NCBI RefSeq assembly: GCF_030684315.1 | Contig: NC_081371.1 | Span: 28,267,440-28,331,439, forward strand | Origin: Stegostoma tigrinum | Lineage: Eukaryota | Direction: 5' to 3' | Length of the DNA stretch: 64,000 bases | Part shown: positions 1,643 to 55,734 of the stretch, one piece after another | Position numbering within the stretch: the stretch's first letter is position 1 | How the letters are laid out: every line of letters begins with the position of its first letter | Made by a program: the position numbers and the translations under genes | Notes under the pieces: generated by a model | Database searches by the model: none | The model's input: the letters and a program-made list of their open reading frames with translations, nothing else | What the model was told of the DNA's origin: nothing

Positions 1643-2075
1643 AAAGGTTTGGGATGATGAGGTTTGGGATGATAAAGGTTTGCTTGCCGAGCCAATGTGT
1701 TTGATTGCAGATGTTTTGTCACCTTGCTAGGTAACATCGTCAGTACAGGGACCTCTGGTGATGCGTTGGTATTCTGTCTCGCTTGTTATTTATATGCCTT
1801 GGTTTGCAAGCGTGGTTGGCATCACTTCCAGTTTTGTTTCTCAGTGGTTTATATATTGGGTCTAATTCAATCCGTTTGTTGATGGAGTTCCAGTTGGAAT
1901 GCCAGGCCTCCAGGAATTCACTGGCATGTCTTTGTTTGGCTTGTGCTATTATGGATGTGTTGTCCTGGTTGAATTTGTGTCCTTCTCTGTCCATGTGTAT
2001 TGAGACCAGTGAGAACTGGTCGGGTCTCTTGGTGGCTAATTGGCGTTCGTGTATCCTTATTGTCCGGGATGATGT
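1643..2075 (-). mobile_element. Penelope-like element 3' fragment (GIY-YIG C-terminus plus terminal region)
   Basis: ORF 1740..1994 HKFNQDNTSIIAQAKQRHASEFLEAWHS..SINK resembles the C-terminal half of a PLE GIY-YIG endonuclease; followed by a hammerhead-like motif and a short tandem tail. Confidence 0.8.
1706..1747 (-). ncRNA. Degenerate minimal hammerhead ribozyme motif in the PLE terminus
   Basis: Minus strand TGTA-CTGACGA-T-GTTACC-tagcaa-GGTGAC-AAAAC-ATC-TGCA: stem I TGTA/TGCA, 6-bp stem II; GAAA and GUC altered in a pattern consistent with CpG decay. Confidence 0.6.
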
Positions 2076-6020: not shown

Positions 6021-6397
6021 GTATATTCAAAGTCTCTGGCAAGAGGTAAAGGTGAGTAAGGTAAGTGGGCGAAGGAGCAGTGGCAGATAGATGAGTACAA
6101 ATGGCGGCTAAGTGGGGAGGATGTTTCAGATGTCATGGTTGAAACTGTTGACTGATGGTGTCAGTTAAATAATTAGCCAGGAGTTAGTACAGGTTTTAAA
6201 CGTCAAATTTTGTTTTCACTGGATAACTACAAAGGTCAGTAAGTTGAAACCGTCTGAAGTCTCCGACTCTGGCTCAGCTGAGAAATTTTTCAGCAGATCG
6301 TAGACCCCAGGTGGTTGCTGCACAGGTTTATGAGGGAGATCTGTAATGCTGTTAGAGTCAGGGGGCCACTGAGGGACATGTCGGCCGTTGCACAGGG

Positions 6398-6830
6398 TGG
6401 GGGAAGAGCCTTGCAGACGGGGTTAGTTGGGATTCGGGAATGGGGGGGTGGAGACAGCCTTCTGGACGGGGTTGTTTGGTGAGGGAGGAATGGGGGGGAG
6501 ATCCTTGTGGTTGAGGTTGTTTGGTATGGGGGGATGAGGAGAGGGCCTTGTAGATGGGATTGTTTGGTGTGGGGGAATGGGGGGAGAGCCTTGTAGTTGG
6601 GGTTGCTTGGTGTGAGGCATGGGGAGAGTGCCTTGCAGATGGGGTTGTTTGGTGTGAAGGTATGGGAAGAGGGCCTTGCAGATGGGGTTGTTTGATGTGG
6701 GAGTATGGGGAGAGGGCCTTGCAGATGGGGTTGTTTGGTGTGGGGATATGGGAGAGGGCCTTCTATGTGGTGGGTATGGGGGGAGAGCCTTGAAGAGGGG
6801 TTTTTGTTTGATGTTGGGGGTAAGGGGGGG
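6398..6830 (+). repeat. G-rich minisatellite, about 10 units of about 43 bp
   Basis: Unit approximately GGGGAGAGGGCCTTGCAGATGGGGTTGTTTGGTGTGGGGATAT; the CCTT core recurs at about 6409, 6458, 6503, 6546, 6589, 6631, 6674, 6717, 6759 and 6788. Confidence 0.95.
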
Positions 6831-21170: not shown

Positions 21171-22427
21171 ATATTTGTGATGTGTTGGTTTACCTTGATT
21201 CGATCTTTCCTTTGTTTGATTTTAAATGCAAGTTTACGAGGAATACAGTAATAGGAAAAAATATTTGCAGCTTTTTTTTCCTCATCACCTTCTCAAGGCA
21301 ACTAACGGTGGGCAATAAATGTTGGCCCAGCCAGCGATGCCCACGTCCCATTGAAAAAGAAAGTTAAATTTTCAATTAGCTGAATGTTGTGGACTAATAG
21401 TTATTAGAAACTGGTAACTTTCAGAAGATTGTTTCATTGCATTACTCTTGGCAGTATTGGCATTACGGCTTTGACAACTTATTAGGCCAACAAGTTAATC
21501 CAGCTCAAAATATTTTGTGAAATTCCAGGCACAAATCTGTCATCAATACCTTGCACATGGATGAGACGTTGATGGACATGTATTACAGATACCTCCTGCA
21601 CTGCTTCTCTTCACGAAAGACATCTCTCTGTATATCCCGATGCCCCCTTACTGGCATTCAGGGAGTTGTTGCATTTTAGTCTCATTATTCGACCTAATAA
21701 CTAATATCAAAAATATGAAGAGTGAGATTTGCAGCGTTTTTAAATGTTCTGTTGGCATTGAAATCTTTTTAAAACGTGGCTTTAAGTTGGCTTGTAATTA
21801 AGAGCGACATCTTTATTATTAGGCGGCTTCGTGGAGATAGTTTTATATTCCGTGCCTTCGTTCCCTGTTAGTGACTGTACATGCAAATCACATTACAGAT
21901 TTTGCATTTATGCCAAACCTAAGCAGCATCGTCATAAAATACGTAGTCCAACTGACGTATCAGACGTCATAGCAATATATATTCAGGAGTTTAAAGAAGA
22001 GGTAACTATCACTGCTCATTATGCACTCGGTATAACTACATAATTCAATTAATACATGTTGACCTGCGGGAGGAAATCAGAACGAAATTACAATAAGTGA
22101 CTCAGTCTCCACATCAACCAAGATCCATATCGACACGTTCACACGCGATTGCTGAAATGTTTTCCCAACGTGTTTTAATACTTAGAGGATAGCGTTAAAA
22201 TGTTGGAACAATTCAACAGGCAAAATGCCACTCCATCAGAGTGGAATTTAACACGGAAATCAGGCAGTCTGCTGCAGCAGGAATTGGAGTCTGATCCGAA
22301 ATCAGGCTACATCAGTAAAGAAGTGATAATATAACAGGAGCCTTTTTACAAATGTTGCAATTCTTCTGTATCTAACGAATGTTTTGTTTCACATTGTGGA
22401 ACTGACAACACAACGTTAGAACGCAGA

Positions 22428-22549
22428 GATGATGGGAACTGCAGATGCTGGAGAATTCCAAGATAATAAAATGTGAGGCTGGATGAACACAGCAGGCCAA
22501 GCAGCATCTCAGGAGCACAAAAGCTGACGTTTCCGGCCTAGACCCTTCA
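22428..22549 (-). mobile_element. Short Penelope-type terminal element with 12-bp TSD
   Basis: TTAGAACGCAGA at 22416-22427 and 22550-22561; minus strand starts ATGAAGGGTCTAGGCCGGAAACGTCAGC; same family as 42101-42385. Confidence 0.85.
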
Positions 22550-23199
22550 TTAGAACGCAGACACCAGTTTTGGAACTCATAAATCTCAAACATTTCTCTA
22601 GCACTAATTCCTGTACTGCGTCCTCACTTGGTCTCATTCTCCAAATTTTTAGGATTTCATATTTATTTCCTGCGTTGGCATGCATACTGACACTGACCAC
22701 ACTATTTGAGATCAAACCTACGCCGTCATACTTTACTCCTTATCAATCACTCTAATTGGGATTTTGATCGGACACAATTAATCCCTAATCCTATGTTATG
22801 GAAGCGTTGCAACGTAATAATTTGGTGGTAATCATTACCCACATGGATGCGATCTTTTCTCCAGTCATTATTTTAACGTAGTTTTATACATATTTTTAAC
22901 CAACTTGTTCAGTCGAGGTTGAACACAACTCTGAAACAGATGGGACTGAAACCAAGGTCTTTTGGCCCAGAGCCCAAGACCGTTGGTCAAAGGCTAGGAG
23001 CAGAGTCAAACTTCACTTAGTCTAATATTTGTTTACGTGGTGAAATATTACAAGTAAGATCATCTTTATAACAACCTGTCCATATAATGAGGCATCCACG
23101 GAATAGTTGGGAGTAGAACCCGGGACTCCTACCGCAAACTAGGGACACTACGATTGTATCTCGAGCCCCCTACCGTGAGGATTTGGCTGGCGAACGCAA

Positions 23200-28552: not shown

Positions 28553-28771
28553 TCAGAGACAGTAGGAACTGTAGATGCTGGAGAATCTGAGATAACAAGG
28601 CAATGAGCTGGATGAACTCAACAGGCCAAGATGCATCAGAGGAGCAGGAAGGCTGATGTTTCAGGCCTAGACCCTTCTTCAGAAATCTGTAGGCCCAAAA
28701 CGTCAGCCTTCCTGCTCCTCTGATGCTGCTTGGTCTGCTGTGTGCATCCAACTCTTTACCTTGCTATCTCA
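28553..28771. mobile_element. Fold-back (inverted) short Penelope-type insertion
   Basis: Arms 28588-28669 and 28690-28771 are imperfect reverse complements; flanked by ATTTTTAGAGTATTGTT / ATTTTTAGAATATGGTT. Confidence 0.85.
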
Positions 28772-29188
28772 TTTTTAGAATATGGTTGACTACAGCTTGG
28801 ACTTAACCACAGCTGTAAATTTGAAGAGACATCAGATTACTTTCTGAACGTGGTGTCACATCAGATGTTGTTAATGATATGAATATCAAGGTGAGACAGT
28901 GTACCTGCAGTCTGAAAGAACTTGATCATTGCAAGACTGATATTTAATTTTCAGTCAAATTAATTTGGGCTCTGTCTGTTATTATCATAAAATGTAGTGT
29001 TCGTTATGATATTCTCTTTACCTAATTTTAGTACTCAGTAAGTTTAAATATTTTCTGAGTTTACTTCTATTGATACTAAACATTTGTTTTAAAGAGAAGG
29101 GTACACCATCTATTTATAATTTGACAAAAAAGCTTCATTAATAGTCATAGATGTGGATATATGTTTAGGATATGGGACAACATTCTGA

Positions 29189-29313
29189 ATTTCTGAAGAA
29201 GGTACCTGACCCAAAACATCAATTTTCCTGCTCCTCTGATGCTGCCTGACCTGTTGTATTCCTCCAGCTCCACACTTGTGTTGTCTCTGACTCCAGCATA
29301 TCCAGTTCTATCT
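29189..29313 (+). mobile_element. Short Penelope-type terminal element
   Basis: TTCTGAAGAAGG..ACCCAAAACATC..CCTGCTCCTCTGATGCTGCCTGACCTG..TCCAGC, same as the 3' end of the element at 32136-33137. Confidence 0.8.
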
Positions 29314-32054: not shown

Positions 32055-33545
32055 TCAACAGGTTCAGAAAAGATTTATAAGGATGTTGCCAGGGTTGGAG
32101 GAGTTGAGATATAAGGAGAGACTGAAGAGGCTGGACTACACCACCGCCCACCCACCCTGCTGCAAGCATGCAATCCCCTACTCCCAATTCCTCTGCCTTC
32201 GCTGTGTCAGCTTCCTTTCCCCCTTCCGGTGATCAAAAGCGCCCTCAACCACATTGCTTGCATTTCTGCTGTCAAATTCCCTCCCCCAACAAAAATAAAG
32301 ACAGAATTTCCCTTGTCCTCACATATCACCCCACCAACCTCTGTGTCCAACGTTTCATTCTCCACCACTAACACCTCCTGTAATCCGACCCCACAACCAA
32401 AGAGATATTTCCGTCCCCCCTCCCCATCTGCCTTTCATAGGGACCACACTCTCCATGACTCCCTTGACTGCTCTACACTCCCCACTAACCCCACCACACC
32501 CGACACCTTTCCCTGCAACTGCAGGAAGTGCTACACCTGCCCCTGTACCTCCCCCCTCACCTCCATTCAAGGCACAAAACAAACTTTCCATATCAGACAG
32601 GTGCTCACCTGCACATCCATCAACTTCTGGTTGCCAACCATTTTAACTCCCCCTCCCACTCCCTGGGTGACATGTCCATCCTGGGCATTCTCCAGTGTCA
32701 CAATGACGCCAGCCACAAACTGGAGGAACAACACCTCATATTCAGCCTCAGGAGCCTACAGACCAATGGCAGAAACACGGAATTCACTAGTTTTAAAATC
32801 TCCCCACCCCTGGCCTCTTCCCATGACCAACCCTCCCTCTCATCCCTGCCTCCTTGACCTGACACAAGCTTCTCTCCCACCTATCCACCCCACCCATCCC
32901 ACTGACTAATCTGTACCACTCCTAGCCAGGACTCACCTATCACCATCCCACGTAACCTCCCGACCCCTCATCGCTCTCTTTCTTTCTGAGCTCCCTTCGC
33001 CCTCCCATTTCTGAAGAAAAATCCCAACCTGAAGTGTCAACTTTCCTACTCCTCATATGCTGCCTGGCCTGCTGTGTTCCTCCAGCTCCACACTGTGTTG
33101 TTTCTGACTCAAGCATCTACAGTTCTTGCTATCTCTGTCTGAATAGGCTGAAGCTATTTTCCCTGGAACATCAGAGGCTGAGGGGTGATGTTATACAGGT
33201 TATAAAATCTTGACAGGCATGGTTAAATAGACTAGGTCTTTTCCCCAGGGTGGGAGAGTTCCAAACTAGAGGGCATAGATTTATGGTGAGAGGGGAACGA
33301 TTTGTAAAGGACCTGAGGGGCAACCTTTTCATGCAAAAGGTGATGCGTGTACAGAATGAGCTGCCAGAGGAAGTGGTACAATAACAACATTGAAAAGGCA
33401 TCTAGATGGGTATTTGAACAGGAAGGGTTTAGATGTATGTGGGCCAATTGCTGGCAAATTCGACTAGATTTACATAGGATATCTGGTTGGCATGGATGAG
33501 TTGGACCGAGGGTCTGTTTCCCTGCTGTACATCTCTATGACTCTA
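32055..33545 (+). mobile_element. CR1 3' fragment (32055-32135 plus 33138-33545) interrupted by a Penelope-like element
   Basis: VQKRFIRMLPGLEELRYKERL before the insert and RLRGDVIQVIK..TRGHRFMVRG after it; degenerate TSD CTGAAGAGGCTGGA / CTGAATAGGCTGAA. Confidence 0.85.
32136..33137 (+). mobile_element. Penelope-like element 3' portion (Cys-rich linker, GIY-YIG remnant, terminal region)
   Basis: LVLTYHPTN, TFPCNCRKCYTCPC, VANHFNSPSHSLGDMSILG..KLEEQHLIFSLRSLQTNGRN; then a pyrimidine tract and a CTGAAGA-headed tail. Confidence 0.9.
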
Positions 33546-39099: not shown

Positions 39100-42050
39100 T
39101 ATGTTTGCATTTGGAATTTTGTGAGAAGTTTTGGGCTGTGTGCTCAAGGAAGCTGGCATTGGAGGGGATTCAGAAGAGATTTACAAGAATGATGCTGGGG
39201 ATGAAGGGTTTGTGACATGAGGAACAATTGACATCTGGACTCAGTGGAGATTGGAAGAATGAGGGGGTATCAGATTTAATATTTATAGAATACTGAGGGG
39301 CCTCGATAGATTGGATGTGTAGGAGATTTTTCCACCAGTAGGAGACATTAGGACCCAAAGGAACAGTCTCAGGGTGAAGGGATGACCCATTAGAACTGAG
39401 ATGAGGAGGAATTTCTTCAGCCAGACCATGGTTAATCTGTGGAACTCATTGCTGCAGAGGGCTGTGAAAGTCAAGTCACTGAGTGTATTTAAGAAAGAGA
39501 TCAATAGGTTCTTGACTAGTGAAGGGATCAAGGATTACAGGGAGAAGGTAAGAGTTGAGAAACATGTTAGTCATAATCAAATGTGGAGTAGACTTTATAG
39601 ACCAAACGGCTTAATTTTGCTGCAATATCTTATGATCTTATATATCCATTTCAGAGTACAAAATCTACTAACATGGTTTCTTTAATTAACGATGAAACAA
39701 TTGTTTCATTACAAAAGAAAATCTATTCAATAAAGTTGCAAAGCTTATTACATACAGTTTATAAAATGATAGCATAAATATATACCCTTCTAAATGCTGC
39801 AAGCTACAAACACCAAAGTTCCCTCCAAGCTCAAAGTCCCATTTCTGAAGCTGGGTCCTGACCTGAAACGTCAACTTCCCTCTCCTCTGATGCTGCCTGG
39901 CCTGCTGTGCTCCTCCAGCTCCACACTGTGTTATCTCTGATCCTTGGGTCGATTGGCTTCCAAGACAGCACAAACCAATGGTAGGCCACAGGATTGGGAA
40001 TGTTTTATGAACCGGCAGTAAATGACTATGCAAGTAATAGAGAGGAAATATTGAGCACGCAAGTACAGTGACAAGTAATATAAAAACAGACAGCAAGACT
40101 TCTACCTTTGTTTAGAAAAGATGGATTAGTTAAAGCAAAGGTAGAACTCTTGGTGGATGCAACTTGGAAATAAATGACATCTGTCATTGGGAATTTGCTA
40201 GACTCCAGTAGGGAAGAAATCGCACGTAATTTGGAAAAGTTTGATACAGTCAAACTGAGTCAACATGGTTTGAAGAGAAATAATTTTTGACAAATTTTCT
40301 CGAGTTTTTTGAGGATATAATAAGCAGAGTTGTTAAAGGGGAACCGGTAGATGTATAGCAGTGTGTTTAGATTTCAGAAGGCAATTGATAAGGGGCAACA
40401 TTGAACAAGATAGAAACTCATAGTGTAGGAGTAATGTATTAGCGTGGATTGAGATTAGTTAATACACAGAAGACAGAAAGTTAAGATTAATTGCTCTTTT
40501 GCGTTTGCAATGACATGACTAGGAGAGAACCGCAATTATTTATTATCTCTATTAATGATTTCAAGGAGGGGGAAAAGTGAAATAGATCCAAATTACTGAC
40601 ATTACCAAAACAGGTGAAGGAGCATATTGTGATCAGGACATCAGAATTTGAAAGTGGATATAAATAGGTTGAGTGAGTAGGGAAAAGCTTGGCAGATGGA
40701 GTTTAATGTAGGAAAGTGTTTGGTCATGCAATTAGGTAGGAAAATCAAAAGGCAGATGATTATGTTAATGGCGCGAGACTCCAAAAAGTGCATGAAATAG
40801 AAAAAGTTATCATGCAGGTACAGCAAGTAATTAAGAAGGCAAATAGAATTTTGAGAGTTGAAATTTAAAAATAGGAAAGTTTTGTTATTATTGCACAGGA
40901 TGTTGGTGAAATCACATCTGGAGTATTCTGTACAATTTCGATTCTCGCATTTAAGAAAGGATGTCTCAGCATTGAAGACAGCTCAAAAAGAATTCGTTAG
41001 GCTAAATCTTGGAAGAGCGGTTGGCTTATCAAGAATGGCTACACAGATTAAGCATATATTAATTACTTTAAGAAGAATGAGGGGTGATCTTATTGAAACA
41101 TATATAAGATGCTGAGAGCACTTGACAAAGTAGCATGTTGAGAAGATGTTGACTGGTAGTGGAATCCTGGATTAGGGCTCATAGTTATGTAATCAAGGGA
41201 CATTCATTTAAAACTGAGATGCAAAGTAATTTCTTCTTTCAGTGAGTGGTGAATGCCTGGAATTCCTTAGCTCAAAATGTCCTGGAGGTTAAATCACTGG
41301 AAGCATTTAATGAGGATATAGATAGATTTTTTGAATTTTGGAGAATTGAGGGCAATGAAAAGTTGGCATAAAATAAGAGTTGAGGTCTGGGTAGATCAGC
41401 AATGAAATTGTTGCATGGTGGAATAGTCTTGATGGACCAAATATCCTACTTCGGTTCCTTTTTCTTATGTTCTTATATTCATAAGACCAGGGAGGTTATG
41501 CCAAATTTTTGCAAGAAATTGGTTAGACCTCAGCTGGAGAATACTGCATAGTTCTGAGCACCATGATTTAGGAAAGGCATGAAGGCATTGAAGATGTGCA
41601 GAAATGTTTCATGAAACTAACTCCAGGCGTGAAAATCTCCAGTTTTGAGGATAAATTGGTGAAGTTGGGACTGCTCTTCCTGGGGAGTAGAAGGCTGAAG
41701 GAAGACCCCATGAGGTGTCTGGAGAAGTATGTAGGAAGAAACTGTTCTGAGTTGCTAAAGGATCAAGAACAGGAGGGCACAGATTTAAATTGGTTTGCAA
41801 AAGTAGCAATTGAGACATGAGAAAAAGAAAACTTTTTTAAGCAGCAGGTGGTCTGGATTTGGAATGTATTTCCTGGAAGTGTGGTGGAAGCAGATTTGGT
41901 TGAAATATTCAAGAGGGACTTGGACCCGATTATTTAAATAGAATTAATGTACAGGATTATGGCTTAGCACATGGTCAATACGCTCAGAGAGCCAGTGTAG
42001 ATGTGCTGGGCCAAATGGTTTTCTATGCAGTAATAATTCTGTAATTCTGT
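39100..42050 (+). mobile_element. Series of degenerate CR1 fragments (about 39100-39640, 39960-41480, 41480-42050)
   Basis: MRRNFFSQTMVNLWNSL, LVKSHLEYSVQF, RRMRGDLIETY motifs and CR1 3' UTRs. Confidence 0.85.
39838..39940 (+). mobile_element. Short Penelope-type terminal element
   Basis: CCCATTTCTGAAG..GGGTCCTGACCTGAAACGTCAAC..CTGATGCTGCCTGGCCTGCTGTGCTCCTCCAGC. Confidence 0.8.
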
Positions 42051-42100
42051 GAACTTCATGTAGGCAAGTGAACCAAAAGAAAACACATTGAATTCTGCAG

Positions 42101-42385
42101 TGATAATGGGAACTGCAGATGCTGGAGAATCCAAGATAATGAAATGTGAGGCTGGATGAACACAGCAGGCCCAGCAGCATCTCAGGAGCACAAAAGCTGA
42201 CGTTTCGGGCCTAGACCCTTCATCAGAGAGGGGGATGGGGTGAGGGTTCTGGAATAAATAGGGAGAGAGGGGGAGGCGGACCGAAGATGGAGAGAAAAGA
42301 AGATAGGTGGAGAGGAGAGTATAGGTGGGGAGGTTGGGAGGGGATAGGTCAGCCCAGGGAAGGTGGGATGAGGTTAGTCAGTTAG
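42101..42385 (-). mobile_element. Young Penelope-type 3' fragment with an intact hammerhead-like core at 42199-42226
   Basis: Minus strand CTGATGA-A-GGGT-ctag-GCCC-GAAAC-GTC, preceded by a pyrimidine tract. Confidence 0.85.
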
Positions 42386-43860: not shown

Positions 43861-44019
43861 TGTGTCACCTTCCTAAAGTAAACATAATTTTTCATGCTGT
43901 GTACAGCAACAACTTGCATTATAAGCACTCACAGTAGCATTATTAAACAATATACCTAAAAAGAGCTCATCAATTTCTCTGCAAGCGTTACATTTTTTAA
44001 ACCAATCTTGCCGGAATAC

Positions 44020-44872
44020 ATAAGATAACACAGCGTGGAGCTAGAAGAACACAGCAGGCTAGGCAGCATCAGAGGAGCAGGAAAGTTGCTGTTTCAGGTT
44101 GAGACCCTTCTTCAGAAATGGGGAAGGGTAAGAGAGCTGGGAAAATAAATAGAGAGAGGAGGGGTGGGGCTGGGGAAGGTAGTTGGGATGGTGATAGGTG
44201 AGTGCAGGTAGGGAGTGGTGGAGATTGGTCAGTGAGGGGGTGGGGCAGATAAATGGGAGAGGAGATGGACAGGTTGTCTCAGGTCAAGAGGCAGGGATGA
44301 GATGGTGGGTTAGGCATGGGATGAGGCCGGGGGTGGGGGGGGATGGTTGGCGAAAACATAGAACTGGTGAATTCCATATTTTGGCCGTTTGGCTCTAGGC
44401 TCCTGAGGCGGAATATGAGATGTTGCTCCTGCAGTTTGCGGGTTGTGTATCATTGTGACATTGGAGGAGGCCTAGGATGGACATGGCATCCAGGGAATGG
44501 GAAGGAGGGTTAAAATGGTTGGCGACTGGAAGGTGTTGTCATTTGTCGCGTACAGAGTGCCGATGCTCTATGAAGATGGTCTCCGAGTCAATGTTTGGTC
44601 TCACTGATGTAGAAGAGGCTACATTGAGTGCAGTGGATACAGTAGACCAAGTTAATCAATGTGCAGGTGAACCCCTGTGTGATATGAAAGGTTCGTTTTG
44701 GGCCTTGAATGGAGGTGAGGGTGGAGGTGTAGGGGCAGGTGTAGCACTTCCTGGGAAAGGTGCTGGGGGTGGTGGAGTTAGTGGGGAGTGTGGAGCTGAC
44801 GATGGAGTTGTGGAGAGAGCTGTCCCTACGAAAGGCAGATAGAGGAGGGAAATATTTCTTTGGTTGTGGGGT
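44020..44872 (-). mobile_element. Penelope-like element 3' portion
   Basis: Reverse-complement homologue of 32136-33137, with more of the GIY-YIG region and the same terminal tail. Confidence 0.9.
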
Positions 44873-45669
44873 GGCTGGAATACATGTTTATTTAATTAGT
44901 ATGGCAGAATGAAAACTGGTTGGATTGTGTATTTGTAGCATTCTGTACAAATATTTCATTCAGAAGGTGGATAAATATAAAAGTTGCTGAAATAGTGGTG
45001 TTTACAAAAACTTTACCATTCCCCACACATAACTCTTAGGAGAAGCTCTTTAGAGCTAACTCAGTTTAAAGAACTAGAATGTAACTTTAAAATCTGGTAT
45101 GATATCTGTGAAGTTGGGACAAAGCGATAGGTTTGGAGTGATAGGATTGGAGGTAACCTGTGAAATGAACATCAGGAATCTATAAGAAAAGCAGAAATGT
45201 TGGAAATTCACATCAAATCAGATGGACCACAGTGTAGCCTCATTGAAGCTCACTATAACTGCAGTGTGACCTCTTTATTCTTCTACTCTAATACCTTTTT
45301 AATAAAGACTAACAACCACTTACTTTCCTATTTGCCTGATTACTATGACAAATTTAATAAAAACATATGTGTATGAATTTTGTTTTTAATCAGAATTTTA
45401 ATGAAGATTGGGTGGGTAATATCACAATAATGAAATACAAAATATTTGCTTTCTCATTATATCTTTCAAAACAGACCTACTGTGTTCTTCCCAGTTGGAG
45501 CAATTATCTCAACAAAGTGAATGTAAGGTGGCTAGCATGGTGTGAGTTTAAATGATTTTACAGGAGGATATCTGGGGGCTAGCATTTCAAAGAAACTTGG
45601 AAAAGTAATGTCCAGTTGCAATTTTTGATTATATTTAATTGAAAGGTTAGTTTTCAGACATTTCGTCAC

Positions 45670-47698
45670 TTTTTTTTATTTGAAAAAATATTCTTTATTC
45701 ATAAGATGTACAAAAAATAAAACATATTTATACACCTACCCAGTCATGCAAGCCGCTCCGGGTTACCCAAGGGGTATGTACACAAACTAAAGGAAAAAAA
45801 CAAACAAAGAAGAAAGAAAAAAAAAACAAAGCAAAGAAAAATACCCCGGCAGTCGTCACCCCGCACAATCCCCATTGGCCCCCTGACCAGTTGGGGAAGG
45901 CGCCAGCTGGGCCCAGGTACCAGATAGGGCCCTTTTTTCTATTCGGGACGAGGGGTTTCACGCCGTGGTCTTGCCTCACCTCGCCTTGGCGGTGGCTGCC
46001 CCAAGCTTTAGCGCGTCCCTCAGCACATAGTCCTGGACCTTGGAGTGCGCCAGTCTGCAACATTCGGTCGGGGTCAGTTCTTACAGCTGGCAGACCAGCA
46101 AGTTGCGGGCAGACCAAAGAGCGTTTTTCACCGCATTGATGGTCCTCCAGGCGCAGTTGATGTTGGTCTCAGTGTGCGTCCCAGGAAACAGCCCGTGGAC
46201 CACAGTGTCCCGCGTCACGGAGCTGCTCGGGACGAACCTCGACAAATACCACTGCATCCCCCTCCAGACCTCCTGCGCATAGGCACACTCCAGAAGGAGG
46301 TAATCGACAGTCTCGTCCCACCCCGCAGCCGCCTCGAGGGCAGCGTGCAGTGGTGCAGAGATTCCGGGCATGCATAAAGGATCTCACTGGCAGAGCCCCT
46401 CTCACCGCCAGCCAAGCAATGTCCTTGTGCTTGTTTGAAAGTTCTGGCGATGAGGCATTCTGCCAAACGACTTTGGCAGTCTGCGTGGGGAACCACATGA
46501 CGGGATCCACCCTCTCCTTTTCCCGAAGGGTCCTGAGGATACTACGTGCTGACCACTGCCTGACGGCCTTGTGGTCAAAGGTGTTTCCTTTCAAAAATTT
46601 CTCCACGAAGGACAGGTGGTACGGAACGGTCCAACTACTCAGAGCGTTCCGCGGCAACGAGGCCAGGCCCATCCTTTGCAACACAGGGGACAGGTAGAAC
46701 CTCAGTATGTAGTGACACTTGGTGTTTGCGTACCGAGGATCTATGCACAGCTTGATGCAGCCGCACATAAAGGTAGCCGTCAGGGCGAGGGTGGCTTTCC
46801 CCCATTTTCCAGGCCTTTGTACATGGTGTCCTTGCGGACCCGGTCCACACTCGACCCCCAAATGAAGTGGAAGATGGCCCGGGTGACCGCAGCAGCGCAG
46901 GTCCAGGTAATAGGCCAGGCCTGCGCCACATACAACAGTACCAAAAGCCCCTCGCACCTGACAACCAGGTTCTTACCCGCGATGGAGAGGGACCGGAGCG
47001 TCCACCTGCCCAGCTTCTGCTTCAGTTTGGTGATAAGCTCCATACAGCACGCGAACAAGGCAGGAGAGAGCGGGCAGCCCTGCCTGACTCCAGATCTGAT
47101 GGGAAAACTGTCCGATTCCCACCAGTTGGTCGAGACTTCGCTAATGATTTTGGTGTAGTGCAGCCGGGTCCAATTGCGGATGCCCTCCCCGAACCCCAAT
47201 TTGGAGAGGACGTCCCTCATGTAAGCATGAGAGACCCTGTCGAAGGCCTTCTCCTGGTCCAGGCTGATGAGGCAGGTGTCCACCCGCCTGTCCTGCACGT
47301 AGGTGATCGTATCCCTGATTAGCACGAGGGTCTCAGCAATCTTCCTGCCCGGCACAGCACAGGTTTGGTCAGGGTGAATGATCGACTCCAAGACAGACCT
47401 GACCCGGTTGGCTATGACCTTGGCCAGGATTTTGCAGTCCACGTTCAATAGTGAAATGGGATGCCAATTCTTAATTTCTTCCCTCTCCCCCTTCCTCTTG
47501 TAAATGAAGGTGATGATGCCCTTCCTCATGGACTTGCACATTTCTCCTGCCCGAAGCGCACTATCGTACACCTCCAGCAGGTCCTGGCCGACAAGGTCCC
47601 ACAGAGCGGAATACAGCTCGACCGGTAAGCCGTCGCTCCCGGGAGTCTTATTCCTCTCCAAGGACTTGACGGCTCTGGTCAGCTCGTCCAGGGATATC
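45670..47698 (-). mobile_element. Tx1-clade non-LTR retrotransposon, 5'-truncated and internally deleted (left arm)
   Basis: ORF 46780..47661 KTPGSDGLPVE..WHPISLLNVDCKILAK..DQEKAFDRV..GVRQGCPLSPALF; C-terminal zinc-finger region CPRGGCG..ETVDYLLLEC; 3' UTR and poly(A) at 45670-45677. Confidence 0.93.
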
Positions 47699-50307
47699 GC
47701 ACCTCAGCAGGTACAGGAAATGGTCCGGCGCCTGGACCTGTGGGCCTTCAATCTGGAGGTGGTGGTGGGGGCATCTCCTAGTGGCTGATGTCACCTACAG
47801 GAACGCTCCCCTGAGGCTGATCAACGTGTATGCCCCAGCGGTACGGAGTGAGCGGTTGGCCGTCCTGCAGCGGCTTCCACCCCTGCTGGCTACGTCCAGG
47901 TCGGTCATCCTAGGCGGAGACTTCAACTGCATCATTGATGCAGATGGAAGATCCGGCGTGGGGACAGCGGGTGGGGGGAGTCAACTGGACTTCATATCCA
48001 GATTCCTGATGGGCACGGTGAAGGACGCCAAGCTGCTTGATGTCTTCAGCACCCCTGCAGATGGAGCGCAGTGGAGATACACCAGGTTGCGGCCAGACGG
48101 GTCTATCCGCGCAAGGATAGACTTCCTGTTTATGGCACGGGCGTTCTCGGTCAGGTCCACCGGCGTCGAGCCGGTGTTCTTCTCCGACCACTGCCTCCTG
48201 CTGGCCGACTGTCACTTACAGGACGACCAGCCGGCCGGCAAGGGGACGTGGAAGCTCAACACGACTCTGTTGCCCCCAGAGAACGTCGAGGAGCTTAAGA
48301 GGGAGTACGCCAGTTGGAGAACCGTGAAACCCCTCTTTGAGTCTCCAGGCGACTGGTGGGAGACGGTGAAGGAGAACATCAAGAGGTTCTTTGTCCTCAA
48401 GGGTGTTCGGAAGGCGAGACAGAGGCGGGGAAAGCTGTCGCGACTCCAGAAAAGGGTGCAGAACCTGCTCCTTCTGCAATTGATGGCGGTCGATGCCATG
48501 GAGGACTCGTGAGGTGAGGGGCCAGCAAGCCTCGCTCTTCGGCGTGGAGGCCTCCAGGATAATCTTCCGGTCCAGGGAGCAGGACGAGACGTGCTCGCGT
48601 TTGTTCTTTCAGAAGGTGCATCCATCAGGAAGGACATGAGCCTGAAGGACGTGACTATCCCAGGCAGCGGAGGCCTTCAGGTCAAGGCCTCACTGTACAT
48701 GGACGATGTCACCATCTTCTTCACCGATCGTCGGTCGGTGAGTAGGCTGTTGGACATCTGCGGCCAGTTTGAACTGGCCTCGGGTGCCAAAGTCAATAGG
48801 GGTAAGAGCGAGGCCATGTTATTCAGGAACTGGGACGTCCGCTCCTTCATCCCCTTCACTGTCAGGACAGACTACCTGAAGGTGCTGGGTGTTTGGTTCA
48901 GTGGAGCTGGGGCGTGCACTAAGACTTGGGAGGAGCGTATCACCAAACCGAAGCAGAAGCTGGGCAGGTGGATGCTCCAGTCCCTCTCCATCGCGGGTAA
49001 GAACCTGGGTGTCAGGTGCGAGGGGCTTTTGGTACTGTTGTATGTGGCACAGGCCTGGCCTATTCCATGGACCTGCGCCGCTGCGATCACCCGGGCCATC
49101 TTCCACTTCATTTGGGGGTCGAGGATGGACCGGGTCCGCAAGGACACCATGTACAAAGGCCTGGAAAATGGGGGAAAGCCACCCTCGCCCTGACGGCTAC
49201 CTTTATGTGCGGCTGCATCAAGCTGTGCATAGATCCTCAGTACGCAAAAACCAAGTGTCACTACTTACTGAGGTTCTACCTGTCCCCAGTGTTGCAAAGG
49301 ATGGGCCTGGCCTCGTTGCCGCAGAAAGCTCTGAGTAGTTGGACCGTTCCGTACCACCTGTCCTTCATGGAGAAATTTTTGAAGGGAAACACCTTTGACC
49401 ACAAGGCCATCAGGCAGTGGTCAGCACGTCGTATCCTCGAGACCCTTCGGGAAAAGGAGAGGGTGGATCCCGTCGTGTGGTTCCCCACGCAGACTGCCAA
49501 AGTCGTTTGGCAGAATGCCTCATTGCCAGAACTTTCAAACAAGCACAAGGACATTGCTTTGCTGGCGGTGAGAGGGGCTCTGCCAGTGAGATCTGTTATG
49601 CATGCCCGGAATCTCTGCGCCACCGCATGCTACCCTCGAGGCGGCTGCGGGGGGCACAAGACTGTTGATCACCTCCTCTGGAGTGCGCCTATGCGCAGGA
49701 GGTCTGGAGGGGGGATGCAGTGGTATTTGTCGAGGTTCGTCCCGAGCAGCTCCGTGACACGGGACTCCGTGCTCTACGGGCTGTTTCCTGGGACGCACAC
49801 CGAGACCAACATCAACTGCACCTGGAGGACCATCAATGCGGTGAAAGACGCTCTTTGGTCTGCCCGCAACTTGCTGGTCTGCCAGCTGTAAGAACTGACC
49901 CCGACCGAGTGTTGCAGACTGGTGCACTCCAAGGCCCAGGACTATGTGCTGAGGGACGCGCTAAAGCTTGGGGCAGCCGCCACCAAGGCGCGGTGGGGAA
50001 AGACCATGGTATGAAACCCCTCGTCCAGAATGGTAAAAAGGGCTCTATCTGGTAACTGGGCCCAGCTGGCGCCTTCCCCAACTGGTCAGAGGGCCAACGG
50101 GGACTGTGCGGGGAGACGACTGCCGGGGTATTTTCTTTGCTTTGTTTTTTTTGCTTTCTTTTTCTTTTCTTTTCTTCTTTGTTTTCTTTTTGCCTTTAGT
50201 TGGTGTACATACCCCCTGGGTAACCCAGAGCTGACATGACTGGGTAGGTGTATAAATGCTTTTTTTGTACATTCTATGAATAAAGCATATTTTTTCAAAT
50301 AAAAAAA
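47699..50307 (+). mobile_element. Tx1-clade non-LTR retrotransposon, 5'-truncated and internally deleted (right arm)
   Basis: APE endonuclease LINVYAP..ILGGDFN..RIDF..FSDH..WKLN; RT C-terminal half SLYMDDV..SGAKVNRGKS; zinc-finger region; AATAAA and A7 tail at 50301-50307. Confidence 0.93.
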
Positions 50308-50400
50308 GGTGATGAAACATCTGAAAACTAACCTTCCAGCTCAGCGAGCAAACTCACATCCAGAAGCTCAACCTGAGCTACAAATCTTCTCAAAACTCAC
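50308..50400 (+). mobile_element. Penelope-type 3' terminus starting in the 3' half of a hammerhead motif (inverted partial copy at 45645-45669)
   Basis: GGTGATGAAACATCTGAAAACTAACCTTCCAGCTCAGCGAGCAAAC aligns with the terminus at 1680-1724 (minus: GGTGACAAAACATCTGCAATC..GCTCGGCAAGCAAAC); TSD TATTTAATTGAAA at 45632-45644 and 50401-50413. Confidence 0.8.
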
Positions 50401-51569
50401 TATTTAATTGAAAATTATGTGGTGTCATAATATAATATGTTGGTACATAAAATATCCTGACAGGTAATAAAGAAAATTTATTCAATAAATACCACAAAGG
50501 GAATACTTCAAAGTCTGTTTAGTATTTAAAATTTTGAAGGAGTTTGTGCTATGATGTTTTGAATTGATCATTTTCAATGTGTCTGCAGAGTCGGTGGAAG
50601 AAAGATTGTGGTAGATGCTATGACAACAAGCAGGATAATTTTCTGAATCACCTGTCTCGCTTGATGAACAACATGTACCATTTGAAATGAACTTAATTCA
50701 GTGATGCTGCATAAAACACCAGATCAGTACTAAGAGGTTTCAGAAACTTATAAGTCAAAGCTCTCAATTTGCAGGTTGAAAATGAGGAACAGTTTATTAT
50801 CATTCAGAGAGCATTGTCAATATGCCATGTTCATTTGTGTCCACTAACGTATGTGGAAGTCTACTGAGAATGATACATTTCCACTTTCCAAATGTATATT
50901 GTAGAAATAAAAAAGTTATGTTAACATGTTAAAATTAAAATGAAATGAAAAATTTACAAACATTCACAGGTTAGTCTTAAGGGCATGTTATTGGAGGCAG
51001 TTGGAGCTACAAAACTCCAACTCAGGCTTCAGTTCTCCAGTTTTCTTTGTAGAACAGGCAGGCATCAGTGATACAGCAACGACATAATCACTCATTACCT
51101 TCTCTGGATTGTACACTTGCTTCCGGGTTACTTTTTGATCAAAGCCTCGAAGTGGAAATTACTTTTTTTTATTGTCTGTTTTCCTTTGCAAGACATCACA
51201 TTATCTTTGATGCCAAACTATTGCAAGATGCAGGAGCAAAACAGTGCCCTTTCTAATATCACAATGACTGAGGCAAATAGAATTGTTATCTTTCAATTTT
51301 TAACTTGAGAATTGAAATTCATCATTTTCAGTCTATAATTAAAATTTATCATCTGCATTATACCCATTTCCTTTTGCGTTACTGTCCCAAAATAAACATA
51401 ACTTTATATATTTTTAACAAAATCTTCCTCCAATATACTTGTTAATTTCAAGCCAAACAGTATCTCTGAAGAAAGAAAACAAAATAATGTCTCAGGCCAA
51501 CGATCATAACTGGAAGAAGTTACTGATGTAATAGGTTATAAGCAATTACTGTATCAGGAAGTGGGATGG

Positions 51570-53297: not shown

Positions 53298-54344
53298 GCA
53301 CTGTTTAACAAAGAAGTTGAAAGTTCTCAGGCTGTCCTGGTCGAGGCAACAGCTCAGAGGGATTGGATGTTTAGCGTGAAAAAGAGATGGTTAGGACATG
53401 AAAACTGCCCAAATGTAGATAGAAAAATATGTTTCAAGGCAGGAAGAAATCAATTAAAAACTGCAAGAACAGACTGAAACAAAATTGTGTACATAGCTAA
53501 GATGAGCTGATGGTACCTTATGACATATATTTACCTTTCCATTTTGTTAATCTGGTGAAAGCATTAGAAGCAGACTATATGGGTTGGTTTTACAGTTTTA
53601 GAGTCCATTGAAGGAGGATTTCCAAAAGAGGTGAACTCAATGAACATTTGCAATTTGATGCTTTGATGTTGGGTGAAACAAGTTTAAGATGGCGCCAAAG
53701 AGTTGTGATTCAGTTCCAGAAATTAGAGATCCATTTGTCAAACAGTAATACTGCTACCTTGGTCAGTAGTTTAATTGCCAATTTTAGGATTGAATCTGAG
53801 AAGATAGAGATCTAGAAGATCTGAGGTACAAATCTACTCAAGAGCCTTAAAGATCTGAGGTAAGTAGTTTCTTAATTGCCAGTAATATAATGCAGTTCAG
53901 GTGATTTGACTCAATGCCAAAGCAGCAATAGTAGGAAATGTCTGTTGGCATAATAGACAATGGAGCCAGACTAAATCTCTCCCAATAGTCCAATCTCTCT
54001 CAATAAAACAAAACTTGACAAGAGCCAAAAAATTTTGTTGAAGCTTTAATCTTGCACTAATCAAAACAAAATGCAAGAAGACCAGTGTAAAAGAAAAGCA
54101 GCACTTAGGCTGGTTGGGTATGGTCAGAATACAGCTTATGCTTGCAAAATTCAAAACACCGTGTTAAACATTAGTTGCAATACCAAATGAGGCATTTTCT
54201 AAATAATCCTAACAGTGCAAAGAAGTATGCTGCCAATCAGTTTAGAATTACCAGTCAACCTCACAATGTGGCATGCTTGTGTGCCCTGGAAGCTGGTTAT
54301 TATTAGTACACAAGGTTCTGTTTTTTGTAGACAGAAAGAACAAG

Positions 54345-54436
54345 TGCTCCTAAAATGCTGCTTGGCCTGCTGTGTTCATCCAGCTCCACACTTCATCATC
54401 TCGGATTCTCCAGCATCTGCACTTCTCATTATCTCT
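54345..54436 (+). mobile_element. Short Penelope-type tail lacking the ribozyme core
   Basis: ATGCTGCTTGGCCTGCTGTGTTCATCCAGC..GGATTCTCCAGCATCTGCA, homologous to 22428-22549. Confidence 0.8.
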
Positions 54437-55734
54437 AATATGCTAATACTCTGCCTGTTTCAATTCAACATAGTGGTTAACACCCATTCTCTGGTCCATT
54501 TCTCAAGACAAAGCCTTGACCAGAGTCAATTGCCTGATGTAAAACATAAACCAGGTTTGGCAGCTGGCTGTCTGTCATAACGTAACTGGTGCATTCTCCA
54601 TGGCAACACCTTGCCAACCAATCAGCGCTCTTTTCTCACATGGTAAAAATATCACTTTCCATTTACGTTGGTATTTCTTCCAAAGTGAATGCAAGATGAA
54701 AAACTGTGACAAAATCATCCTTTTTTCCTTCAATATCAATTGCCTGTGGATCGTATGCTATATAGGAAGAATAAGGGATCATCTTTCTCAAAATTAATTC
54801 AACAATAATATACTCAATATATTGTGGTTAAGATATCAATTGACAACATTTGTATTAAAAATATACATTTGATTTGCAAGTTTTATTCAAGTACATTTTG
54901 GTGAGAAAGGATTTCATTCTTGGTGTTCAATGCTACAATAGATTACAGAACAAAATTATGTAAAGCCATACTTTGAAATAAAAAAAGTCACAAAAATTAA
55001 AAGTATTTACTTTAGACTGAATACTGTGCAGAAGACATTTAAAATAAGATATGTTATTGTATACACTAAATAAATTTCCATCTGAAATGAGAGCAATTAA
55101 TTTTGTGCTAATTTATAGATAATGAGAGATATAGGAAGCACTCTTTGATTAATTGGAATAATATCAAAAGAATTCACGATTCCTATGGAGTAGTCATTCA
55201 AGTTTTGTTAAATATGTGAAACAGTTTGAGCCTCGATTAATTATCATGGGTGAGCAAAGAACAGAGAGAGATTCTTGGAGTAGTTTGTTAAAGGCAACAT
55301 AGCTATACTTAGCCACCCAATGTGAAAGCAAGGAATAGATCTATCTTGCTTGTATTATCTTATATATAAGACAAAAAAATCAAGTAATAATTCTTATGAC
55401 TTTGAGGAGAAATAAAAATTACTACATCAAGACAATATGAAACAGAAGCAATCCAGTTTCTTTTTTAAAAATTGCTAATGTATTGATGCTGTCCAAGAGT
55501 CTTTTTTTAAATCCATAATGTGATGCAGGTTTTGCTGGCTAATCTAGTAGGTATTGGCCATCCATTATTGCCTTCGCGAAAGTAGTGTCTTCTTGAACTG
55601 CTACAGATCTAGGGGGCATACCTACAGTGCTAATAGGAAGGGAGTTCCAGCTTTTGACTCAGCAACAGTGAGGGATGGTGAAAACAAACCAGACTGGGTA
55701 AGCACTTAGCAGAACACCTCTGCCTTAGCTGTTG

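Follow-up and report, generated by a model that had tools for sequence, protein, structure and literature searches.

The window, that is the whole stretch of 64,000 nt of Stegostoma tigrinum NC_081371.1 analysed here (coordinates are window positions unless stated), contains a composite unit in which two copies of a Tx1-type long interspersed nuclear element (LINE) point outwards and each abuts a terminus of a Penelope-like element (PLE). The entire unit is enclosed by a 13-bp target-site duplication (TSD), TATTTAATTGAAA, which is located at 45632–45644 and 50401–50413 and has no further occurrence in the window. This arrangement of two outward-pointing Tx1 copies within one TSD had been proposed in an earlier sequence-only reading, and is confirmed by direct inspection together with Pfam domains. 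The parts of the unit, and an older PLE remnant included for comparison only, are as follows.

45632–45644, plus strand: left one of the two 13-bp TSD copies, belonging to the initial inverted insertion of Penelope, read directly; TSDs of 11–16 bp are typical of plain inverted PLEs.
45645–45669, minus strand: 25-bp PLE end comprising the 3' strand of stem II, GAAA and the cleavage triplet; shorter than both usual PLE ends.
45670–46600, minus strand: outer part of the left LINE, with 3' untranslated region (UTR), A8 tail and C-terminal part of open reading frame 2 (ORF2), subfamily c2; inner boundary approximate.
46660–47041, minus strand: inner part of the left LINE, probably replaced by sequence copied from the right arm, with a private 13-bp deletion (junction 46784–46805) and rare substitutions; boundary approximate.
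47037–47699, minus strand: inverted N-terminal half of the reverse transcriptase (RT), terminating at most ~10 nt from where the right arm resumes.
47691–48620, plus strand: apurinic/apyrimidinic (AP) endonuclease and linker pieces, with a 75-bp internal deletion near 47752–47756.
48618–50307, plus strand: right LINE, with C-terminal RT, zf-RVT region, 3' UTR and A7 tail, subfamily c3; 13-bp deletion junction at 49168–49189.
50308–50400, plus strand: 93-bp PLE end with the 3' half of the hammerhead, the first PLE ORF codons and a ~33-nt 'tail'.
50401–50413, plus strand: right copy of the 13-bp TSD, read directly.
1658–2057, minus strand: what is left of a PLE of an older family, its degenerate hammerhead motif lying at 1706–1747; no LINE inside.

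The right arm ends in A7 at 50301–50307 followed by 93 bp of PLE at 50308–50400, and the left arm, read on the minus strand, in A8 followed by 25 bp of PLE at 45669–45645, in agreement with the Penelope termini that had been called from the letters alone; a PLE end as short as that of the left arm is found at 1 of 107 other ends. The junctions behind both poly(A) tails are likewise real, but in the left arm the final TT of the sequence quoted for them is part of the TSD. Both arms match Pfam Exo_endo_phos, RVT_1 and zf-RVT, as pieces of a Tx1-type LINE, and differ from each other by 5.7% (94.3% identity). When compared with L105, an intact natural copy in which ORF1 and ORF2 are both open, the interior of the unit resolves into five pieces joined at microhomologies of 2–9 nt, in the order inverted 3' part, inverted N-terminal RT half, direct endonuclease and linker pieces, and direct 3' part. 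The centre, for which a later deletion had been suggested, holds four rearranged pieces, and a simple deletion does not describe it.

In L105, ORF1 contains two RBD_ZCCHC3 matches and a zf-CCHC match (Pfam), and ORF2 carries Exo_endo_phos, RVT_1 and zf-RVT. The closest RT homologues are unnamed amphibian and fish RTs (45–48%), together with one match annotated as 'transposon TX1 149 kDa protein' (37%). Members of the family exhibit A-tails and TSDs of their own, namely 17 bp at the off-target copy L045 and 11 bp in copies residing in U2 small nuclear RNA (snRNA) genes.

The PLE that serves as the target has an RVT_1 match upstream as well as a GIY-YIG-like motif at the C-terminus seen by eye, with no Pfam GIY-YIG match; the older PLE at 1658–2057 is 69% identical to it. 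Its terminal repeat contains the hammerhead and the ORF start, its two 3' ends lie ~33 nt apart, and its copies form inverted, 5'-truncated arms with the tail on one end only. Empty sites carry the CUGAUGA core, stem II, GAAA, the palindromic positions 15.2–16.2 and the GUC triplet, and the motif folds with a 7-bp stem II. Neither the window nor any of three empty PLE loci gave a match to an Rfam hammerhead model; the Penelope ribozyme of the sequence-only reading nevertheless stands as a putative minimal type I hammerhead on the basis of motif, fold and the published description of minimal hammerheads, which Poseidon-type PLEs carry according to a section of PMC4209133. Of 20 long PLE copies that extend to the 5' end, 4 (from two loci, both duplicated) have their ORF start within stem II, and two of these remain open for 159 codons; LINE insertion thus falls within the opening codons of the PLE ORF.

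The target resembles Penelope/Poseidon elements in the minimal type I hammerhead with its 7-bp stem II, the ORF start within stem II, the two 3' ends ~33 nt apart and the inverted arms, and putatively in the RT and the GIY-YIG-like C-terminus. As described in part of PMC11167929, stem II is where the ORF of the anole Poseidon element has its beginning, and its tail is set by two RT start sites; inverted arms and tails are noted for PLEs in an excerpt of PMC8557442. The present target family differs in that about one in ten of its hammerhead sites is occupied by a LINE. As a separate observation, the hammerhead core is partly missing from four full-length PLE 5' ends near the ORF start (L203, L207, L213 and L214), which are preceded by a shared stretch of ~140 nt with a splice-acceptor-like end; they represent two distinct loci, and the stretch may be flank. 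For D. virilis Penelope, a passage of PMC4209133 maps an intron end to helix I.

The association between LINE and hammerhead extends throughout the 3.2-Gb genome. A 20-nt motif at the LINE 3' end, searched as exact matches, occurs 2,232 times, and in 1,626 of these the 3' half of the hammerhead follows within 10 nt and with zero mismatches. The majority flank behind the poly(A) tail in other copies is thus the one that the sequence-only reading had put to the test, and because reversed-pattern controls yielded 0 matches against both 2,232 and 1,626, the junction is not due to chance. In genome order, the first 30 LINE copies all (30/30) have the target junction or the element's own 5' look-alike, and among longer stretches all 40 junctions fit (34 target, 6 own look-alike). 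Of the top-scoring copies, 37/39 fit likewise, the remaining two being a scrambled junction and an off-target copy; the tallies of 40/40 and 37/39 include two mutated junctions judged by eye. Among 79 loci the 3' junction falls on three adjacent bases of the loop II/stem II boundary, just past TAGAAT, in registers of 37, 30 and 3 loci, with 6 further junctions having a substituted or missing base and 3 lacking the target motif. The earlier placement of the LINE in loop II therefore has the correct hammerhead site, but the junction is at the boundary with stem II and occupies three adjacent positions. Matched patterns across the genome give 13,782 empty PLE hammerhead sites versus 1,390 filled 5' junctions, and 328 filled versus 2,099 empty sites for an older PLE subfamily, with a background LINE occupancy of 9% and 13.5%. 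A preference of the LINE family for this target is demonstrated at the level of genomic sequence by these counts.

The 5' end of the LINE is reached by 31 of the 40 genome-order copies, and 24 of 28 copies from an independent sample chosen by internal probe exhibit the same leader-type structure. Upstream of the LINE is the missing half of the PLE, as had been forecast; in place of the plain TSD expected next comes a stretch of 62 nt that copies the downstream target in diverged form, with fixed differences. Two diagnostic columns of this leader are present in 50/53 and 52/53 LINE copies versus 0/30 and 5/30 empty PLEs, and the leader covaries with the LINE body (Mantel r=0.28, p=0.002; 52 full-length copies). 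Since the leader follows the LINE subfamily, it is best described as element-borne, and since its end coincides exactly with one of the natural PLE ends, of which there are two, a captured PLE terminus is suggested as its origin. The point where host letters give way to element letters differs from copy to copy, within ~17 nt of the nick. In addition, 20/53 flanks versus 0/56 empty PLEs (p=6e-8) carry an altered hammerhead core, the change lying 17 nt upstream of the nick, and the core is intact in 4/53 LINE 5' flanks versus 14/25 plain partner arms (p=7e-6). Use of the host hammerhead by the LINE for cutting its own 5' end was considered and rejected on this last count. Compared with L105, one contig of a sequencing run labelled as the same species, from another study, spans PLE, leader and LINE 5' UTR, and a run labelled as another species contains a leader-type loose end; two further runs yielded short pieces and were set aside.

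These observations are compatible with an insertion route resembling that of R2, for which part of PMC6895275 describes that upstream target sequence on the RNA 5' end is needed for full-length insertion, through pairing of the cDNA with the target. The LINE RNA would start upstream of the nick and bear a dead hammerhead; primed at the nick, it would be copied through to its 5' end, and the copy of the leader could then pair with the target, whereby mostly full-length copies would be joined, with a second nick ~15–17 nt downstream. The hammerhead would be destroyed rather than used by the LINE. The proposed likeness to R2 lies in a target-derived RNA 5' end that may aid full-length insertion; R2 differs in having a restriction-like endonuclease and its own active hepatitis delta virus (HDV)-like ribozyme, in contrast to the AP-type endonuclease and usually broken leader hammerhead seen here.

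Two further configurations involve the leader. At ~8940–9030 of L136 and in the inverted arm of L131, leader-type sequence runs directly into the PLE tail; here a LINE has probably been lost through recombination of its leader with the downstream target, leaving this footprint, and such solo footprints may be included in the count of 1,390 filled-type junctions. Tandem arrays of LINEs in head-to-tail order, whose junctions contain the leader, occur at L034, L042, L055, L060, L102, L110, L111, L115 and L135, and account for 5/40 copies in genome order, near the background occupancy.

A minority of copies occupies a second target. Two internal-probe copies are located in a U2 gene (Rfam U2, 72.2 bits, gathering 46), and genome-wide the LINE 3' end forms 49 U2 junctions versus 1,626 PLE junctions. 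The LINE 3' end is present in 24 of 30 variant-U2 loci among those listed; many U2 copies are duplicates, and the 11 examined reduce to about six lineages. Their flanks begin at U2 nt 39, 40 or 41, at or just past TAGTA(T), where nt 39 is the site of Utopia, stated to be identical to that of Keno (PMC4640811). The same three nick registers are preceded by TAGTATC in canonical U2 and by TAGAATG in the PLE. A midpoint-rooted tree was built from the 11 U2 rows and, out of 79 PLE-type copies, 25, with L045 and any copy in which the segment is missing excluded. In it, nine of the U2 rows group together as sister to the PLE-type copies, with support 100/99 and a branch of ~0.011 (~1% apart), and two nest among the PLE-type copies. 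The direction of the switch cannot be taken from such a root; rather, U2 is favoured as the ancestral target because Keno has a wide range in the literature.

The PLE leader is absent from copies of the U2 group, whose start lies 19 nt further into the element and is preceded by U2 nt 1–49, with an 11-bp TSD, and L250/L255 place a PLE-type body at U2 nt 39, also without the leader. Eight fixed differences separate the U2 and PLE groups, of which three are in ORF1, one in the RT, one is silent in the endonuclease and three are in UTRs. No endonuclease residue is private to the U2 copies over 250 columns, when the two U2 copies that retain this domain are compared with 64 PLE-type copies. The simplest reading would be that of one enzyme with two look-alike targets.

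The U2 loci show further features of their own. The variant U2 genes are dispersed and segmentally duplicated, at ~70–87 Mb of contig G000:C13 and on many small contigs, and most are LINE-interrupted; canonical U2, with 12 matches, forms ~7.6-kb arrays on C2 and C13. At three variant U2 loci of G000:C13 (L265, L267 and L268) the 3' end of a different element adjoins the same U2 site region. Four copies (L249, L253, L254 and L257) share one internal deletion of ~770 bp, from the end of ORF1 to the start of the endonuclease, and possibly constitute a non-autonomous U2-resident subfamily.

Several observations argue that the LINE reached its PLE sites independently. Its body does not covary with the downstream PLE (Mantel r=-0.16, p=0.94), whereas its own 5' and 3' body do covary (r=0.48, p=0.002; 52 full-length copies in both tests). 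PLE alleles on the LINE side match the plain arm of the same locus in 18/19, 16/20 and 15/20 upstream and 23/29 downstream comparisons. Two copies speak for autonomy of the LINE: L105 has both ORFs open, and L045 is 5'-truncated and lies outside any PLE, at a site resembling the PLE site and within its own 17-bp TSD. Because the body is unlinked from the flank, the flanks match the local arm and L045 has its own TSD, the distribution is best explained by repeated site-specific insertion, with carriage by the PLE not the main route. Overall, we assign a probability of roughly 0.82 to the reading that a Tx1-clade LINE family sits at one hammerhead site of a PLE, most likely via a nick made by its own AP endonuclease, and has near-identical sisters at the Keno site of U2. 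It is from the placement of the copies that we infer the specificity of this enzyme.

A number of findings weigh against this reading. The downstream flank has few informative sites, which limits the power of the Mantel test. The upstream PLE allele at column 1039 tracks the LINE subfamily (0/18 vs 15/24), and far-upstream PLE sequence covaries with the LINE (r=0.21, p=0.036); in our reading this linkage reflects parallel ageing of the two families, but it is also predicted by co-mobilisation. None of the 79 loci has the upstream PLE half joined to a 5'-truncated on-target LINE. Truncated on-target copies are said to be the classic proof of independent insertion, reportedly used for the crocodilian SINEU-3. 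Loci with a LINE in both arms are too frequent for independent hits, at 15/40 ends versus 9 with an empty partner (by eye), and among 19 such pairs about six appear single-template throughout, while several are clearly of two subfamilies. Finally, the endonuclease comparison is based on two U2-clade copies.

One further double-arm pair had too little overlap to compare. Three further pairs share private markers that are confined, assembly-wide, to their two arms, and arm-to-arm copying would account for part of the double-arm excess. The high occupancy of the older PLE subfamily was rejected as a cause of this excess, given 328 filled versus 2,099 empty sites. At the centre of L051 the arms share private changes in PLE, leader and the first ~500 nt and differ further out, a pattern of palindrome-centre conversion. 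The central junction piece of L049 is 98% identical to L173 (G000:C13:55265894-55266064), 350 kb away on the same contig.

In the window unit, overall identity cannot tell one template from two (94.3% between the arms vs at most 95.1% between unrelated copies), and informative columns were used instead. In the outer ~900 nt, 9 of 19 informative columns differ, all differences lying in this part; the left outer arm fits subfamily c2 (log-likelihood -10.4 vs -28.7 for c3) and the right arm fits c3. Because the subfamilies and these outer columns differ, the arms are read as two separate LINE insertions. By contrast, the inner tract is common to both arms, with a 13-bp deletion, whose junction is found solely in these two arms in the whole assembly, and four rare substitutions. 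Every inner piece fits c3, the fit being weak for the shortest pieces, and the end of the inverted RT half, at most ~10 nt from where the right arm resumes, points to a break of the right arm. The 13-bp TSD is best assigned to the PLE rather than to the LINE, since plain inverted PLEs show the same TSD and end types: TSDs of 11–16 bp in 18 of 19 rows, with one short and one tailed end, several 'free' rows of the TSD table being one locus viewed from both arms. The same TSDs and end types are found at 28 of 37 inverted LINE-bearing loci; the automated call skipped the TSD of the window itself, as the 25-bp arm is below the BLAST cut-off. For the order of events we infer that an inverted PLE pair with a normal 13-bp TSD was struck in both arms by two LINE subfamilies, that the resulting long palindrome probably lost and rearranged its centre, and that right-arm sequence was in part copied onto the left arm.

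A single LINE insertion followed by an inverted duplication at the DNA level, in which a template switch at the inverted PLE ends gave the second arm, is an unlikely alternative for the window. It would account for the deletion and four substitutions private to the two arms, for the c3 assignment of all inner pieces and for the similar appearance of L129, L107, L057, L128, L031 and L133 (3–7 differences in 30–50 informative columns). However, the nine differing columns of the outer ~900 nt and their fit to separate subfamilies are at odds with it, as are the dissimilar poly(A) junctions, A7-GGTG on the right and A8-GTG on the left, and the near-restriction of the sharing to the inner tract.

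Rather improbable is that a LINE–PLE chimeric RNA was copied as cargo by the Penelope RT and endonuclease, be it for the whole family or at least for double-arm loci like that of the window. At 28 of 37 inverted LINE-bearing loci the unit is bounded by the two natural PLE ends within PLE-type outer TSDs of 11–16 bp, but such ends and TSDs are expected under both models. The excess of double-arm loci, the private variants shared along the length of several arm pairs and the report, in an excerpt of PMC8557442, that PLEs move other sequences in trans are also in its favour. Against cargo, LINE bodies are unlinked from their downstream flanks, the majority of copies are 5.3-kb LINEs of full length, with an upstream PLE just as short as that of plain arms, the outer arms of the window belong to different subfamilies, and off-target and U2 copies have no PLE. 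Two-arm private markers are, furthermore, absent elsewhere in the assembly at 4/4 loci tested, so that neither a source nor a sibling locus emerged, although a source may be lost or mutated. As the main route, cargo is already largely refuted. Of the two models offered by the sequence-only reading, transport of a chimeric RNA by Penelope thus finds no support as the main route, given the unlinked flanks and locus-confined markers, whereas site-specific Tx1 insertion into both arms of an inverted PLE, with loss of the middle, is supported by the junction counts, the Mantel tests, L045 and the subfamilies. The U2/Keno link and the copying between arms were not part of that reading.

It is quite improbable that the family has no sequence-specific endonuclease and nicks loosely, with completion restricted to insertions whose 5' leader pairs with the PLE. 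The strong full-length bias (31/40), the lack of truncated on-target copies and the identity of the endonuclease in U2 and PLE copies would fit such a scheme; the three-base precision of the 3' junctions, the leaderless, truncated, off-target L045 at a look-alike site and the leaderless PLE-type body at U2 nt 39 (L250/L255) would not. An assembly artefact in the inverted window arm is very improbable, because arms 5.7% apart and carrying different subfamily alleles argue against a misassembled duplicate, and the TSD is exact and unique and the same architecture recurs at many loci.

Among known elements, the family is like Keno in its AP endonuclease and RT, its C-terminal zinc-binding region and its copies in U2 genes, where the 3' flank begins at nt 39–41, a comparison made by description; it differs in that U2, the main target of Keno, is a minor one here (49 vs 1,626). 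No homologue match named Keno was present among the search results. The available portion of PMC4494074 describes Tx1-clade families that also insert in other transposons, namely Tx1-Mar, Tx1-8_Crp, Tx1-4_AMi and Tx1-9_AMi of crocodilians and Tx1L of Xenopus. There, Tx1L inserts in the piggyBac-type Tx1D, Tx1-Mar in Mariner-N4 and others in long terminal repeat (LTR) and Harbinger elements; tandem insertions occur, some families carry 5' heads derived from U1/U2, and some cluster with Keno. That portion names no Penelope-like or ribozyme target. Unlike in those families, fidelity here is near-complete at base resolution and the element's 5' end bears a copy of the target transposon. A literature search, which did not extend to Repbase or to most subscription papers, returned no report of a Tx1 or Keno family targeting a PLE, although a repeat-database entry is possible, and the accessible parts of PMC8869645 and bioRxiv 10.64898/2026.07.22.740005 make no mention of one. 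The target is new, whereas the element is of a known kind (Tx1 clade, Keno type), which we do not file as Keno because U2 is a minor target and no named Keno sequence was compared.

The remainder of the window contains a G-rich tandem repeat of nine copies with a ~43-nt period (6395–6826) and copies of a SINE-like family (SINE, short interspersed nuclear element) at 22424–22555, 28554–28777, 29189–29293, 33004–33111, 39840–39944, 42098–42237, 44019–44122 and 54344–54454, some as head-to-head inverted pairs.

For annotation, there is a risk that the thousands of LINE–PLE junctions and palindromes in this genome are called as one chimeric repeat. For the question of how targets change, the coexisting U2 and PLE types form a rare natural pair, with eight fixed differences and none in the endonuclease protein. 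With an intact copy in existence, the source of specificity (the shared 7-nt DNA motif, the RNA leader or ORF1) becomes directly testable, a question that bears on site-specific gene-insertion tools. The Penelope hammerhead and ORF start represent a new target class for site-specific Tx1 LINEs, and it is likely, judging from the copies at both sites, that a U2-targeting LINE has moved on to a new and far more abundant target. More tentatively, the sisters ~1% apart, with the same endonuclease but a U2 or a Penelope 5' leader and each filling the leader-matched target, could possibly represent an RNA-steered target switch caught under way. If so, capture of a Penelope end would have turned a U2-specific LINE towards more than 10,000 hammerhead sites; there it would disrupt a competing element's ribozyme and start codons, and subsequently spread between inverted arms by copying.

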